DNA of 64,000 nucleotides, taken from the NCBI RefSeq assembly GCF_020852615.1, contig NZ_JADZAJ010000023.1, positions 92,967 to 156,966 of the forward strand, written 5' to 3'. The DNA is from Nitrosomonas sp. GTDB taxonomy: Bacteria; Pseudomonadota; Gammaproteobacteria; Burkholderiales; Nitrosomonadaceae. The position numbers and the translations under genes were made by a program. Positions 57,422 to 63,924 of the stretch are shown in pieces (within the stretch, counting starts at the first letter, position 1; every line of letters begins with the position of its first letter). Below the pieces are notes generated by a model. It saw only the letters and a program-made list of their open reading frames with translations, ran no database searches and had not been told where the DNA came from.

Positions 57422-58060
57422 ATGGATGAATCAACATGTGAACAGAGTTTTCCGGATTTTTTTGCTGATGCGCCTGCTGTGACCGTACAGGACCCGCTTG
57501 CCCGGTTTCTCGGTGCGGCACGTGACGGGGTCATGGAATACCGCTATGCCGATGCGGTACGGCTGGCGGGGCATTCCTGCCCGACGGTGGCCGGTACCTG
57601 GCTGATGACGCTGCACGGTCTGCGTGCGCTGTACGGGGATGAACTGCCGGTGCGTGGCGAAATTGAGGTTTACATGGCGGATGCACGCGATGCCGGCACT
57701 ACCGGCGTTATGGCTACGGTGGCGCAACTTGTCACCGGTGCAGCACCGGAAACCGGTTTTCATGGTATTGGCGGACGTTTTGGGCGCAATAACCTGCTGC
57801 ATTTCGATCAGCCGATGCAGGGCACGATCGGTTTGCGCCGCAAGGACACGGGAGCGGCAGTACAGGTGGAGCTGGATGCCTCGGTGGTGCCCTGGCCAGA
57901 TGAAATGCGTGCACTTCTCCCGAAGGCGGCGAGCGGACAGGCCAGTACGGCTGAGTTGCAGCGTTTTGGCGAGTTATGGCAGGAGCGTGTGCGCAAAATG
58001 CTGGTTGAGCATGCTGACGATGGGGCGATGGTGCAGGTAAGCAGCTGGACGGTGAGCTGA
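57422..58060 (+). CDS. FmdE-family protein
   Basis: YADAVRLAGHSCPTVAG (HxCP) motif. Confidence 0.8.
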   Translation: MDESTCEQSFPDFFADAPAVTVQDPLARFLGAARDGVMEYRYADAVRLAGHSCPTVAGTWLMTLHGLRALYGDELPVRGEIEVYMADARDAGTTGVMATVAQLVTGAAPETGFHGIGGRFGRNNLLHFDQPMQGTIGLRRKDTGAAVQVELDASVVPWPDEMRALLPKAASGQASTAELQRFGELWQERVRKMLVEHADDGAMVQVSSWTVS

Positions 58061-58115: not shown

Positions 58116-58817
58116 ATGAATTCAACTGGGAACACCGAAAAAAATACCAGTCTGCGCTGGCCGCATGTACTGCTGATTGTTACTGGTACGATCGCTCTGA
58201 CTATTATTGGAACTTACTGGGTACTCACCACCTATATTTTTGTTTCATCCTTTGAGCCGGTTGAGCTGAGCCAAAAGGAAGAAAAGACGTTACAACAGAA
58301 GCTTCGGTCGATTGGTTACGATTTTTCCTTCTCATCTTCGCAGGCAAACCAGAGGGATGACACCCGGAATGAGATCAGTAAAGAGGGATTCCTGAAGCCG
58401 GAAGCCTACTCCGAACAGGGAGCAAAGCGTGAGATCAGCTTTACCGAGCGGGAAATAAATGCATTGCTGGCCAAAAATACCGATCTTGCACAAAAACTGG
58501 CGATTGATTTTTCCAATGATCTGGTAAGTGCACGTCTGCTCATTCCGCTTGATGAAGATTTTCCGGTAATGGGCGGGAAAACGTTGCGTCTGAACGCCGG
58601 CCTTGGCATGGCTTATCGCAACGATAAGCCCATTATCATCCTCAAGGGTGTCAGTATCATGGGGGTGCCTGTTCCCAATGCCTGGCTGGGCGGGTTGAAA
58701 AATATGGATCTGGTCAGTGAATTTGGTGTGGATCCCGGTTTCTGGAAATCTTTTTCTGATGGGGTGGAGCACATTCAGGTAACGGATGGCAAGATCGACA
58801 TTCGTTTCAAAGAGTAA
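58116..58817 (+). CDS. Hypothetical single-pass membrane protein
   Basis: N-terminal TM; long open frame; start ATG 58116. Confidence 0.7.
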   Translation: MNSTGNTEKNTSLRWPHVLLIVTGTIALTIIGTYWVLTTYIFVSSFEPVELSQKEEKTLQQKLRSIGYDFSFSSSQANQRDDTRNEISKEGFLKPEAYSEQGAKREISFTEREINALLAKNTDLAQKLAIDFSNDLVSARLLIPLDEDFPVMGGKTLRLNAGLGMAYRNDKPIIILKGVSIMGVPVPNAWLGGLKNMDLVSEFGVDPGFWKSFSDGVEHIQVTDGKIDIRFKE

Positions 58818-58932
58818 TTTTCGAATATGTTTCCGGTTGTGGGGGAAATGGTCGGATCGGGCTTGCCGGGCAAGCGGTAAGCATTTCCAGTGCTGTTTAT
58901 GGCTTTCTTCAGGCAGCTGTGATTATGGTTTA

Positions 58933-58985
58933 GGAACCTCTTTTTAATACAAAAATGGCAACACAGGTAGTTTTTCAGAGGCTCC
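58933..58985. mobile_element. 53-bp mini-MITE with 4-bp target duplication
   Basis: TTTA|GGAACCTCT...AGAGGCTCC|TTTA; arms resemble those of the 19817-20090 MITE. Confidence 0.7.
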
Positions 58986-59870
58986 TTTACTGTTTTCTGC
59001 AGGCTGCATGATGCGCTTCACATCCCTCATGGCGGTCAGATAGGCAATGATTTCTTCTATGACCTTTTCCCGTTCCGGTATTTCTGCAGCCAGAGCTGGC
59101 ATGGTGGTGTTGTAGCGCAGGCTGGCCGGGTTGTCTATCCATTGCTTCAGGTATCCGGGGCTGAAGTATTCGGTTATGCTGACCGGGTAATTCAGTTCGG
59201 GTGCTTTGCCACCTCCCTGACCATTGATCGTATGGCACGCCATGCAGTATTTGCGAAAATGCAGAAATCCCCGCCTGGTTTCCGCAGATGCACCGGCTGG
59301 TGGAAACATTCCCGGAAAACGTGCCGCAAAAGAAGCCAGCTCAATATGGGCAATCTGATAAGGCATATCGGAAGCGCCTTCATCGAGCAAGGCGGGAGAT
59401 TTCAGGTTGTCCCATATCAGGTAAACAGGCCCCAGCGCGACAATTTCATGATTCTGGAGTGTGTTACTGAGTGTAAATGGGGTGTTGTCCGCACTGGCAA
59501 CAGCGAGATAAGCATCGTAAGTGAGGAATTTCACAACCGGAATGCCGGGCTGGTAGCCATCCCGGCAGGTGAAGATGATTTCATCCGCTGTTCGCCAGCC
59601 TGGACCGAACATCTGGTCAAAAATGGATTGTACTGGATAAACTTTGTATTGCCGCTCCCTGCCTTCGTGTACTTCAAAAACTTTCACAGTTTTCTGCCTG
59701 GCGAGGGTATTCAATTCTGTTGGCTTCAGAGATTTGACGAGCCCATCCGGATTTCTGAATTCGATAGGCACTTCAACCGCGTTGGCCTGTACACAAGCCG
59801 GACTGGTAAAAACGATTAGCAGAAATACACTCGTAAGTGCATGAAGCAGGGCATGAGGGTATAAAAGCAT
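58944..59870 (-). CDS. Periplasmic class I cytochrome c with N-terminal molybdopterin-oxidoreductase-like domain
   Basis: Signal peptide from ATG 59870; FTCRDGY and GPVYLIW segments; heme motif CMACH; distal Met in TTMP. Confidence 0.8.
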   Translation of the reverse strand: MLLYPHALLHALTSVFLLIVFTSPACVQANAVEVPIEFRNPDGLVKSLKPTELNTLARQKTVKVFEVHEGRERQYKVYPVQSIFDQMFGPGWRTADEIIFTCRDGYQPGIPVVKFLTYDAYLAVASADNTPFTLSNTLQNHEIVALGPVYLIWDNLKSPALLDEGASDMPYQIAHIELASFAARFPGMFPPAGASAETRRGFLHFRKYCMACHTINGQGGGKAPELNYPVSITEYFSPGYLKQWIDNPASLRYNTTMPALAAEIPEREKVIEEIIAYLTAMRDVKRIMQPAENSKGASEKLPVLPFLY

Positions 59871-60038
59871 TTGTTTATTATCCAATTTTTTTGAATCGAC
59901 AGGGGATCGGTCATCCGGAATATGCAGTATTTTCCAACTGTTTTTATATAGCCAGCGTATTTGTGATAAGTGGAAAGCAAACGAACAGCCCGACCTGTTC
60001 TTTATCGGCGCAGTGGCGGATGCCGCTACCGGCCATCC

Positions 60039-60322
60039 GGGTGGCTTCAATTTCCAGCGGGCCTGGTCCTCGGGCTGCGTCGCCAGGCAGCATCAGCATG
60101 TGCAGGTTTGTCTTGTTAACACCATGCCGGTATGATGAAATCGGTCGCGTGCCATACGTTGTTGCGCTCTTCGTTTGCCACGTATTTGCTGCAAGACAGC
60201 CATAATATTTGCACCGTACAGGGGAGTTGCCGGGGTACAAGAATATGGCAACAACCATGATCTGTACTTATGTATGAAACAGAGGCGGGCGTGGTGTGGC
60301 CGGGCCCGTCTGGCTGAATTTT
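60039..60322 (+). pseudogene. intI: Integron integrase C-terminal relic
   Basis: Frameshifted reading GWLQFPA...RQHQH...AGMMKSVACHTLLRSSFATYLLQDSHNICTVQ/ELPGYKNMATTMICTYV*NRGGRGVAGP versus IntI W.WVFPA...RRHH...CHTLRHSFATHLL..GYDIRTVQELLGH.DV.TTMIYTHVLNRGG.GV.SP. Confidence 0.85.
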
Positions 60323-60347
60323 AATCCACAACTTCAGGGACCTTTTT

Positions 60348-61835
60348 ATGACCGAGCCTCTCCTCATTGCCAAATCCGGCAACACTGAACTGGCTATTCT
60401 GCCGGGTATGGCCAATCGTCACGGGCTGATTGCCGGAGCAACCGGCACAGGCAAGACCATTACGCTGCAAAGTCTGGCAGAGCAGTTTTCGCGTGCCGGG
60501 GTGCCGGTGTTCATGGCGGATGTGAAGGGTGACCTTTCCGGCATGTCCCGGCCGGGCGGGGGTAATGCCAGGGTGGAAGCGCGTGTGGCGGAGCTGGGAT
60601 TGAAAGGCTTTAGCCACACGGCCTGCCCGGTGGTGTTCTGGGATGTGTTTGGCCAGAAGGGGCACCCGGTGCGAGCAACGGTATCTGATATGGGGCCGTT
60701 GCTGCTGGCGCGTATGCTGAATCTGAACGATACCCAGAGCGGGGTGCTGACAGCGATATTCCATATTGCCGATGACCATGGCTGGCTGCTGCTGGATCTG
60801 AAGGATCTGCGCGCGATGTTGCAGCATGCGGCGGAAAACGCCAGTAGCTACAGTGCGGAATACGGCAATATTTCTGCCGCCAGTGTCGGTGCCATCCAGC
60901 GCAGCTTGCTGCAACTGGAGCATGAGGGTGGCGATCGGCTGTTTGGCGAACCTGCGCTCAATTTTGGCGATCTGATGCAGATTACCGAAGACGGGCGCGG
61001 CGTAGTCAATATCCTGGCGGCAGAGACGCTTTACAACTCACCGCGCGCTTATGCCACGCTGCTTTTGTGGTTGCTTTCCGAGCTGTTCGAGAATCTTCCC
61101 GAAGTGGGTGATGTGGAAAAACCTCGACTGGTATTCTTTTTTGACGAAGCGCATCTGCTGTTCAACGAGGCGCCCGCTGCGCTGCTGTCCAGAATCGAAC
61201 AGGTGGTGCGGCTGATTCGCTCCAAGGGCGTTGGTGTGTATTTTGTCAGCCAGAATCCGCTGGATATTCCGGATGCGGTGTTGGGACAACTGGGAAACCG
61301 TGTCCAGCATGCCCTGCGCGCCTTTACACCACGCGACCAGAAAGCGGTGCGGGTGGCGGCCGAGACCTTTCGCCCCAATCCGCAAATCAATGTGGAGGCG
61401 GCCATTACCGAGATGGGTGTGGGCGAGGCGCTGGTTTCCCTGCTGGATGAAAAGGGACGCCCCCACCCTGTGGAGCGCGGCCTGGTCGTGCCGCCGGGAA
61501 GCCGGGTGGGGCCGGCCACCGAGACAGAGCGTCAGCAGGTCATTCGCGATTCCCAGTTGTACGGGCATTATGAACAGCTGGTGGATCGGGAATCAGCTTA
61601 TGAAATCCTCAAGGTACGCGTCGCAACATCGCCGGAACAAGCGCCGAATGAAGCCGATCGTGGCTTTAACTGGGGTGAGTTGCTGGGTGGCAGCACCGGA
61701 CCGCGCGGCGGGCGGCACGAGGGCGTCGTAGAGGCGATAGCCAGGAGCACAGCACGCACCATTGGCTCAGAGCTTGGGCGCCAAGTGATCCGTGGTGTGC
61801 TGGGTTCTATTTTTGGTGGCGGACGACGGCGCTGA
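60348..61835 (+). CDS. DUF853/YjgR HerA-like ATPase
   Basis: [51 protein letters not shown]. Confidence 0.92.
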
Positions 61836-61857
61836 ACCAACCGGGTGGGTGCATCAT

Positions 61858-61884
61858 AAAAAAGGCTGCAGGATCTGCAGCCTT
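61858..61884. terminator. Terminator between convergent genes
   Basis: AAGGCTGCAG-GAT-CTGCAGCCTT, with A-run giving a U-tail on the minus strand. Confidence 0.85.
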
Positions 61885-61966
61885 CGTGGTATTGGCACTT
61901 GCCAGCAACAAAATAGATGTCCTCTTTTGTTGCTTTGATTGAGGGTGCGTAACGCTCTGAGATACG

Positions 61967-63118
61967 TCAGTGTCCTGCAAGATTTGGCGTAATCAAATAG
62001 GGCCAACGATCGGCGTGAATAAGCATCTGTCCCCTGTTATTGAGTTTGGCGGCGAGGTCTTGGTTGATGTCCAGGCCAAGCGATCTGTTGAGATTATAGA
62101 AATTGTCCTTGATCCACAAATAGGTATGCCCGATTGATGCTCCCATCGGGGGTATCGGGTAAGAAGTTGACTGGTGACCGATTACCCAGTCCATATTATT
62201 TATGTCATACGTCTTGCACGAGTCTTTCTCGCAATCAATCGAATGGATCTCTCCGTCATATATTTTGAATCGATTTGCTTCATGGGCTACAAAATGCCCA
62301 ATATCATTTATTGCAGAAATCTGGCCACGCATTTCAGGTAATTCAAAAAATTCACCTTCAACAAATTTGAACGGACGACTTTTCTCGAAGACGTGCGGTT
62401 TTTTTGGATCAAGGATCGGGCCGGTATTTCCCCCGACAACCAGGCCCGATGCATTAATTACCGAATTGAAAAAGTAATGGAAGTTGTGGTACCAGTTTTT
62501 TTCTATCATGTGCAAACTTCCGCTAACATAAACGAAGCCAATAAATTTGTCTTTTTCGCCAGCAAGACCAAGGGCTCTGGTGTTTATTCCAACTGCGTCT
62601 CCCCGGTCATTCAAACCCAGTACCATGAAATCGCTGGTTGGCCAATCAACTTTCACAGGCTTTAATTTGCCAGGCTGCGCATAGGAAAGTACCAGGGAAT
62701 ATGCTGAGGTTTGATGAGTAAATTGCCCAGGCTGGCAGTACCCTGCGATTAATCCCGTATTGGTGATCGCTTTCAGCAAAAAATAGCCCTGGCACGGATC
62801 GTCAAATCTTGACAATTTTCCATCAGCAAAGATAAAGATCTGTCCCCGGGATGGGGGTGGCGGTGTATATATGCCAGCCACATGCCCCTTGTCATTTATG
62901 ACGTGCGCCTTTGCGTAACTGAAGCCGAACTTGGATCCCTTGTTTTTTATTTTAAGTTCATCGGGAATGATGGGTGTGACGGTGTAACGAAATGGCAATG
63001 CAGCCCCGCAGCCACTCAATAATGAAATAATCAGTGAAATAAGAAAAATGGAGAATATATTGCCGCAAGAGCCCGGTGGGGGAGTGCTCGCAGAAGACAT
63101 GGCGATGGAATTATTCAT
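61967..63118 (-). CDS. HAF-type extracellular repeat (beta-propeller) lipoprotein; probable integron cassette
   Basis: Lipobox LLSGC; seven IN..G..vG-like repeats; begins just after an attC crossover point. Confidence 0.75.
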   Translation of the reverse strand: MNNSIAMSSASTPPPGSCGNIFSIFLISLIISLLSGCGAALPFRYTVTPIIPDELKIKNKGSKFGFSYAKAHVINDKGHVAGIYTPPPPSRGQIFIFADGKLSRFDDPCQGYFLLKAITNTGLIAGYCQPGQFTHQTSAYSLVLSYAQPGKLKPVKVDWPTSDFMVLGLNDRGDAVGINTRALGLAGEKDKFIGFVYVSGSLHMIEKNWYHNFHYFFNSVINASGLVVGGNTGPILDPKKPHVFEKSRPFKFVEGEFFELPEMRGQISAINDIGHFVAHEANRFKIYDGEIHSIDCEKDSCKTYDINNMDWVIGHQSTSYPIPPMGASIGHTYLWIKDNFYNLNRSLGLDINQDLAAKLNNRGQMLIHADRWPYLITPNLAGH

Positions 63119-63145
63119 AGGCTTGAAATACAGATCCTTTGGCAA

Positions 63146-63204
63146 GACTAACGCCCTGATTTCAGCCGATGCTGTGGGCAATCGGCTGTGACAAAGTGTT
63201 AGAT
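63146..63204 (-). other. attC site (59-base element)
   Basis: Minus strand ATCTAAC-ACTTTG-TCACAGCCGAT-TGCCCACAGC-ATCGGCTGA-AATCAGGGC-GTTAGTC: RYYYAAC inverse core, paired L boxes, GTT core. Confidence 0.88.
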
Positions 63205-63549
63205 CAAACAAATAACAGCTACTGATAAATCAGTGGGAGCAAGAGCGGGCAAAAACACGATACCTGAATATTGTGAACCCTGATAGGGTGGAGAGCAGGT
63301 TTCACGAACTCTTTGGGGCTGCGAATTACAGCCATTTCTGATGGCACGAGTGGCAAAAGAATCCTGTTTTGCCACTGCACCATGCTTCTATAGTTCGATT
63401 ACTATGGATGGAAACCGCTTTGCACCTGGAGCAGCGAAAGGTTTTTTCTTTTGGCTCCCGCTCTTCTCTCGTTTGGGAAGCAATTTCCCGACAAATGCGA
63501 ATATTATAAAGGCGATAACAGCAGTGGTTGCTGTATTTTCAGTGTGCAT
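63199..63549 (-). pseudogene. Frameshifted gene cassette: TM + CxxC...CxxC Zn-ribbon protein
   Basis: MHTENTATTAVIAFIIFAFVGKLLPKR / EPKEKTFRCSRCK...EAWCSGKTGFFCHSCHQKWL* / third frame ends at the TAA inside the attC inverse core. Confidence 0.75.
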
Positions 63550-63640
63550 GCTTAATCTTTTCTACATCCTCAACGTTTAAATTGAGGGAAATAAAATGGA
63601 TAGCCTGTTGTTTTGTTTTTTCTTTTGTTTTTTTGTTTGC

Positions 63641-63924
63641 GACGGTGGCCGGTACCTGGCTGATGACGCTGCACGGTCTGCGTGTGCTGTGCGGGAATGA
63701 ACTGCCGGTGCGTGGCGAGATTAAGGTTTACATGGCGGATGCACGCGATGCCGGTATTACCGGGGGGGGCCTGTTCCCAATACCTGGCTGGACGGGTTAA
63801 AAAATATGGATCTGGTCAGTGAATTCGGTGTGGATCCCGGTTTCTGGAAATCTTTTTCCGATGGGGTGGAGCACATTCAGGTAACGGATGGCAAGATCGA
63901 CATTTGTTTCAAAGAGTAACTTTC
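63641..63924 (+). pseudogene. Chimeric duplicated relic of the fmdE-like and downstream hypothetical genes
   Basis: 63641-63763 matches 57583-57705 (7 mismatches); 63763-63924 matches 58661-58822 (8 mismatches); joined at a G-run. Confidence 0.95.

Follow-up and report, generated by a model that had tools for sequence, protein, structure and literature searches.

An apparent integron-integrase gene tail beside a flavoprotein gene stub in an intergenic gap of a Nitrosomonas genome

Gene content of the intergenic gap

The window considered here, i.e. the whole 64,000-nucleotide stretch of a Nitrosomonas genome that was analysed, contains a 480 bp intergenic gap between a cytochrome-c-like gene on the - strand and a gene for a HerA-like ATPase on the + strand. 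The gap holds the tails of two pseudogenes, both of them on the + strand. These tails and the features around them are as follows:

58944-59870, - strand: gene with a cytochrome-c domain (Pfam Cytochrome_CBB3/Cytochrom_C), left of the gap
59974-60105, + strand: 3' stub (last ~40 codons) of a paralogous copy of a gene for a TIGR00275 flavoprotein (HI0933/YhiN-type, aminoacetone-oxidase family)
60107-60125, + strand: spacer TTTGTCTTGTTA..., 3' flank of the yhiN-like gene
60126-60310, + strand: intI relic, corresponding to about residues 269-328 of the resident 331-aa IntI (box II, His-III, position of the nucleophile Tyr and the IntI-type C-terminal tail)
60348-61835, + strand: herA-like gene for an ATPase of the HerA_C/DUF853 type (PF05872, 747 bits), right of the gap, with its start codon at 60348
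61967-63118, - strand: ORF of 383 aa without a Pfam match
63145-63204, - strand: lone attC-like site of the resident type (covariance model, 21.6 bits, E 3e-4 in 14 kb)

In the composition profile nothing pointed clearly to a foreign block. A 4.8-kb block comprised of the cytochrome-c-like gene, both pseudogene tails, the herA-like gene, the 383-aa ORF and the attC-like site is flanked by the copies of a duplicated sequence. The copy at 63640-63924 is a direct, internally deleted duplicate (94-95% identity) of 57582-57705 plus 58661-58822, in which part of an FmdE-like gene is fused with the end of a 238-aa gene.

The flavoprotein gene stub and its 3' flank

The left-hand tail reads in a single uninterrupted frame as KANEQPDLFFIGAVADAATGHPGGFNFQRAWSSGCVARQH, and it corresponds to the C-terminal ...LFFIGEVVDVTGHLGGFNFQWAWSSGYVAGQ motif region of the TIGR00275 family. 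It matches positions 366-399 of the 401 in this model, the score being 28 bits when the genome was scanned and 31.6 bits for the peptide. A close and intact paralogue, a yhiN-like gene of 393 aa, is present at C21:91475-92656, and window positions 59977-60093 are 84% identical (98/117 nucleotides, with one in-frame 3-nt indel) to its last 114 nt (C21:91481-91594). Compared with this working gene, the copy in the window has lost its 5' ~1.06 kb, so that only the last ~40 codons are left, and its stop codon has also been lost; the former stop is now CAG (60103-60105), and a tandem duplication of the 6 nt CAGCAT is seen at 60094-60099. Although homology to the C-terminal motif of TIGR00275 is clear in one frame, the score is far under the 183.8-bit cut-off of this family, and the stub is therefore a pseudogene of the TIGR00275 family rather than a member protein.

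This result changes the interpretation of the left part of the gap. The sequence-only reading had taken the segments FPA and RQHQH, which are in the frames of 59880 and 59881, respectively, as the insertion region that is specific for integron integrases. Both segments lie inside the 117-nt flavoprotein stretch described above, and this part of the earlier reading was thus a misreading of a TIGR00275 tail (31.6 bits, and 84% nucleotide identity to the gene on C21). WLQFPAG results when GGFNFQRAW is read in the +2 frame, and RQHQH is made up of the flavoprotein tail GQY(V) and the CAGCAT duplication. When the extended reading (GWLQFPAG.../...SSGCVARQHQH...) was searched against NCBIfam, it gained no more than 2.7 bits on TIGR02249, and it was rejected. 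The FPA frame by itself matched no family.

The spacer TTTGTCTTGTTA that follows is conserved in five congeners (G289, G148, G229, G001, and G009), in which it comes directly past the yhiN-like stop codon, be there an intI tail behind it or not. Because it is present in congeners that lack an intI tail, it belongs to the flank of the yhiN-like gene.

Another yhiN-like pseudogene is found at C10:15861-16020 (- strand), where residues ~1-10, 137-169, and ~373-384 are joined by internal deletions. It has in common with the stub the derived residues HPGGFNFQRA, with 97% nucleotide identity over 32 nt, and this likeness indicates that the dead yhiN-like copy has itself been duplicated.

Identity of the integrase relic

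In the six-frame translation, the right-hand tail reads HHAGMMKSVACHTLLRSSFATYLLQDSHNICTVQ in the frame of 60120, and after a +2 shift at 60221-60224 it continues in the frame of 60221 as GELPGYKNMATTMICTYV*NRGGRGVAGPV. A search of the whole genome with the TIGR02249 (IntI) profile matched C23:153083-153190 and 153187-153276, which correspond to window positions 60117-60224 and 60221-60310 (E values of 1.8e-5 and 0.078; model positions 250-312 of 315). For further comparisons a stitched peptide of 71 aa was used, which was joined across the frameshift and in which the stop codon was replaced by X. This peptide scored 54.6 bits against TIGR02249 (E 1e-14, model positions 252-312/315) and 36.3 bits against the IntI equivalog model NF011946. 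Among all PDB chains the best match was 2a3v, the integrase VchIntIA/IntI4 of Vibrio cholerae (42 bits, E 7e-10, residues 257-317). A tblastn search with the resident IntI, a check that had been proposed earlier, also found the relic in two frames with 55-56% identity. The central claim of the sequence-only reading, that a dead IntI C-terminus lies hidden in this gap, is thus borne out for the stretch from 60120/60126 to 60310. The NRGG.GV tail, which it had noted, is likewise present after the frameshift and forms part of the TIGR02249 alignment.

The possibility that the relic derives from an Xer-type or phage-type tyrosine recombinase, rather than from an IntI, requires consideration as box II is common to all tyrosine recombinases and the Xer models do give scores of 28-31 bits with the stitched peptide (XerD 31.2, XerA 30.4, and XerC 28.2 bits). 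Further, one of the genome's own Xer genes equals the relic in its DNA match to the resident intI over the same conserved box (70% identity in each case), and the IntI-specific additional domain cannot be checked, since that part of the gene has been lost. However, the Xer scores over this C-terminal catalytic region are all under that of TIGR02249, the IntI models being ahead by ~23 bits here and by ~19 bits in the related genome described below. The Xer alignments end at about residue 54, before the tail, and only those with IntI extend across NRGGRGV..P; the last piece alone (...ICTYVxNRGGRGVAGP...) matches TIGR02249 and no other model. A sequence closer to Xer than to IntI had been named beforehand as the observation that would count against the integrase reading, and the scores point the other way (54.6 versus 28-31 bits for the profiles, and 42 bits for 2a3v versus 18 bits for the best Xer chain in the PDB). 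A tblastn search of the relic against 201 genomes of the order gave similar results: nearly all of the matches with 50-63 bits extend through query residue 64, i.e. into the NRGGRGV..P tail, and they sit in open frames that are mostly 325-400 aa long. Six such matches that were checked, as well as this genome's intI, are inside full genes that pass the TIGR02249 cut-off, and the two Xer genes of this genome fall short of E 1e-6 in this search. An origin from an Xer-type or phage-type recombinase is therefore largely refuted and must be considered very improbable. To judge from the ~23-bit margin and the C-terminal tail motif, on which this assignment rests, the sequence at 60126-60310 is descended from an integron-integrase gene.

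The relic is small, amounting to ~61 of 331 codons (18%). Its score is accordingly well under the curated whole-protein cut-off of TIGR02249 (265 bits): 54.6 bits for the stitched peptide versus 486 bits for the resident intI. The relic begins at about position 252/315 of the model, past the IntI-specific additional domain near patch III (intI_Cterm), which is absent. It had been suggested that the N-terminal two-thirds of the gene is gone; as the left stretch belongs to another gene, the missing part is larger, ~80% of intI. The relic has 57% aa identity to the resident IntI and 55-63% aa identity to IntIs of other families, and at the DNA level it has 70% identity to the resident gene. In view of these values it has not been copied from the resident intI recently, and since it is no closer to the resident IntI than to those of other families, it points to no particular source lineage.

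Inactivating changes in the relic

The lesions in the relic were examined codon by codon, and by alignment with 2a3v and with the orthologous sequence from congener G289. The box II motif HxxR (60153-60170, + strand) reads H-T-L-L-R-S, in which the His (60153) and the Arg (60165) are retained, but an extra Leu codon is present at 60162. The conserved His following Arg-II has been changed to Ser (60168; RH to RS at 60165-60170). This change had been noted by the sequence-only reading, which was right about the substitution itself and wrong in labelling the residue as the catalytic His, as it is not part of the catalytic hexad. The other two substitutions that it had reported are both present by the codon table: His-III is changed to Tyr at 60236-60238 (GH to GY, 60233-60238), as is also the case in G289, and the nucleophile Tyr is changed to Cys (TGT) at 60263-60265 (IY to IC, 60260-60265), where G289 has His. 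In addition, there is a frameshift at 60221-60224 (+ strand), where pairwise alignment shows CAGGGGAG versus CAGGAG in G289, i.e. two extra G, and an in-frame TGA at 60275-60277, where IntI proteins carry Leu and G289 has TTG. The R-K-H-R-H-Y set of catalytic residues is thus incomplete: the regions containing Arg-I and Lys are absent, His-II and Arg-II are kept, and His-III and Tyr are lost. The relic cannot be an enzyme.

The orthologous locus in a related genome

When 121 genomes of the genus were scanned, one of them, G289 (contig C35), was found to match window positions 59977-60341, with 75% identity. The order at this locus is a cytochrome-c-like gene (- strand), an intact yhiN-like gene of 393 aa (...GQYV*), a spacer of ~20 nt, a truncated intI tail and the herA-like gene. 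The intI tail in G289 reads ...KPAMPHMLHPLFTMYLLQAGYDIRTIQELSGYENV... and ...HHVLNRGERGVAEPV*; the stitched tail is likewise better matched by IntI (39.8 versus 21 bits), and the AGYDIRT(I)QEL motif is better kept in it than in the window. The herA-like and cytochrome-c-like genes have other neighbours in G001, G002, G005, and G009, and no intI or yhiN-like gene was found within 3 kb of 80 herA-like loci in other, distant taxa. In G002 (C50, L018 978-1525, + strand) a toxin-antitoxin pair of the Phd/YefM-YoeB type follows the cytochrome-c-like gene in place of the yhiN-like and intI tails.

The presence of the same layout in G289 shows that the intI gene had been cut to a tail, ~20 nt past the yhiN-like stop codon, before the two species diverged. 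Their common ancestor thus carried an intact yhiN-like gene followed by the intI tail alone. A deletion or rearrangement would earlier have removed intI codons 1-~265, and with them attI and any cassettes that were present. In a later step this genome lost ~1.06 kb from the start of its yhiN-like copy; the intact paralogue stays on C21.

The tails in the window and in G289 share 77.4% identity, and their alignment has 8 gap columns, which belong to indels of lengths not divisible by three. For the herA-like genes of the two genomes the identity is 90.2% overall and 79.8% at third codon positions. As the divergence of the tail is similar to that of the third positions of the herA-like gene and its indels break the frame, the tail is an old, neutrally decaying fossil. 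By this comparison, it has drifted at about the neutral rate since the common ancestor, without a sign of constraint or co-option.

These results also bear on the idea that the stretch has been retained as a promoter or leader of the herA-like gene, built from dead coding DNA. The stretch is placed directly upstream of the herA-like start codon (60348), one sigma-70-like match is located at 60108-60136, and the stretch has lasted since the split from G289. However, promoter-like matches are at the level seen in shuffled sequences (one found versus 0.6 expected), and a scan of the 480-bp gap for promoters and terminators found nothing that exceeded shuffle expectation. The identity to G289 is also at the neutral level, and it is 59% in the final 37 nt before the start codon. 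A regulatory role of this kind is very improbable. The gap very probably consists of two unrelated dead gene ends that are functionless, one being an intI tail (last ~61 codons) and the other a flavoprotein gene tail (last ~40 codons).

The resident integron and other integron-derived sequences

An intact intI elsewhere in the genome, which the sequence-only reading had recommended looking for, is present on C32. This resident gene (C32:150995-151987, - strand) encodes a protein of 331 aa, contains no stops and scores 486 bits with TIGR02249, and it is accompanied by a cassette array. Together they form a complete chromosomal integron (C32:150995-159802; L033) with nine clear attC sites and one weaker site, all on the + strand and extending to the contig end. 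This gene and array would be the source of the genome's integron activity, if there is any.

A covariance model for attC was built from the nine attC sites of C32. With this model the lone attC-like site in the window was identified, the R''/L''/L'/R' boxes of which are very like those of attC8 of the resident array. It is located just upstream of the 383-aa ORF (61967-63118, - strand), 2.8 kb past the 3' end of the relic and on the strand opposite to it, as in a real integron. Cassette arrays lie beyond the 5' end of intI, and the lone site is therefore on the non-canonical side. On the canonical side of the relic the model found no attC site, and the intI 5' end, where attI would lie, is absent, so that an integron platform, in which attI and attC are located before the 5' end of intI and on the strand opposite to it, is not seen at the relic. 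Over the whole genome, where a lossy first filter was applied, the model recovered the training sites alone, and the genome-wide significance of the lone attC is thus approximate.

A search of the window and the genome for the missing 5' part of intI yielded two fragments. One of these (C9:143841-144035, + strand; L034 2841-3035) covers intI residues 15-78; it is 85% identical to the resident intI at the nucleotide level and is interrupted by an in-frame TAG. About 730 nt upstream of it, on the canonical side, there is a weak and degenerate attC-like site (C9:143053-143107, - strand; 15.5 bits), and the two may represent a second, younger integron wreck. The other (C25:103496-103585, + strand) matches IntI residues 144-173 weakly, with 43% identity and an E value of about 0.05, and may be a fragment or due to chance. 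The very different divergence of these sequences argues against both as the missing 5' pieces of the relic.

In G289, the main full-length intI (G289:C25:108328-109266, + strand) contains three in-frame stops (2 TAG and 1 TAA), and this congener therefore seems to be without a working integron integrase. A weak attC-like site (G289:C35, L041 8310-8368, - strand; 11.6 bits), GGCTAACAATTCATT...CATTAGAAG, was also detected ~520 nt beyond its herA-like gene; it is directly past the stop codon of a 204-aa ORF that is cold-shock-domain/DUF1294-like, which is a cassette-like layout.

Origin of the intI tail

The earlier description of the relic as the remnant of a chromosomal integron is plausible, even though neither the 5' part of intI nor an attC on the array side is present. 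An alternative explanation, which concerns the origin of the tail only and is compatible with the rest of the above interpretation, is that the tail is a stray intI fragment that was copied or moved to this place by a rearrangement scattering pieces of intI and yhiN-like genes. The genome contains other isolated fragments, viz. that of intI on C9, the weak mid-gene piece on C25 and the yhiN-like pseudogene on C10, and a direct duplication with an internal deletion flanks the block 58823-63639 on both sides. The empty canonical side of the relic with its missing attI-bearing 5' region, and the lack of an intI within 3 kb at all 80 herA-like loci from other taxa, are also in accordance with a stray fragment. 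However, with 57% aa and 70% nucleotide identity the tail is no recent copy of the resident intI, an attC of the resident type is found at a distance of 2.8 kb, and the arrangement has been stable for long enough to occur in G289 as well. A stray fragment is thus possible, if somewhat unlikely, and the tail more likely originated by the decay in situ of a second integron.

A more specific proposal is that the yhiN-herA junction was once a second, independent chromosomal integron in the ancestor with G289, and that the lone attC and the attC-like site of G289 are displaced cassette debris. In this detailed form the proposal is improbable.

Comparison with known integrase pseudogenes

Pseudogenes are common among the intI genes; in one survey nearly one third of these genes were inactivated, and two or more intI genes were present in over one fifth of the integron-bearing lineages (Nemergut et al. 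2008, PMC2426708). Like the pseudo-integrons of that study, the relic has been inactivated by a frameshift, a stop codon and a large deletion, and another intI is present in the same genome. Unlike the cases counted there, it is far more reduced, with ~18% of the gene left, and it lacks the additional domain that was used for recognition. It is also common to two species, whereas pseudogenes were noted to be usually not conserved among close relatives (PMC2426708).

In relation to VchIntIA/IntI4 of V. cholerae (2a3v) and the TIGR02249 family, the relic resembles the part from box II to the C-terminus, including the tail after the catalytic Tyr. It differs from VchIntIA in lacking the N-terminal domain, Arg-I, Lys and the additional domain, and in the loss of His-III and Tyr.

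IntI proteins have been defined by a match to PF00589 combined with one to intI_Cterm, the profile for the additional domain (Cury et al. 2016, PMC4889954; domain per Messier & Roy 2001). In the same study intI pseudogenes were reported near 15/279 CALIN, the test for pseudogenes near such integrase-less attC clusters being an intI_Cterm match that covers >50% of the profile (Cury et al. 2016, PMC4889954). As the relic lacks the intI_Cterm region, it would escape this test. Among the IntegronFinder classes (In0, CALIN and intI pseudogenes near CALIN), it is like the pseudogenes near CALIN in having, at a distance of less than 10 kb, an attC to which no working integrase belongs; unlike them, there is a single attC and it is on the non-canonical side of the relic.

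Significance

The contents of the gap represent ordinary gene decay, and a relic of this sort is a known kind of molecular fossil. It is of little importance beyond annotation, as it adds one intI pseudogene to a class that is already common. It does illustrate that a very short intI relic, which lacks the domain that standard tools rely on, can still be assigned by means of its C-terminal tail and an orthologous copy in a congener. It also provides a caution, as a frameshift-tolerant reading by eye had fused two different dead gene tails into one. If it were true that the yhiN-herA junction once held a second integron, a replacement or move of the integron platform would have taken place in this clade, and its time could be read from the relic.
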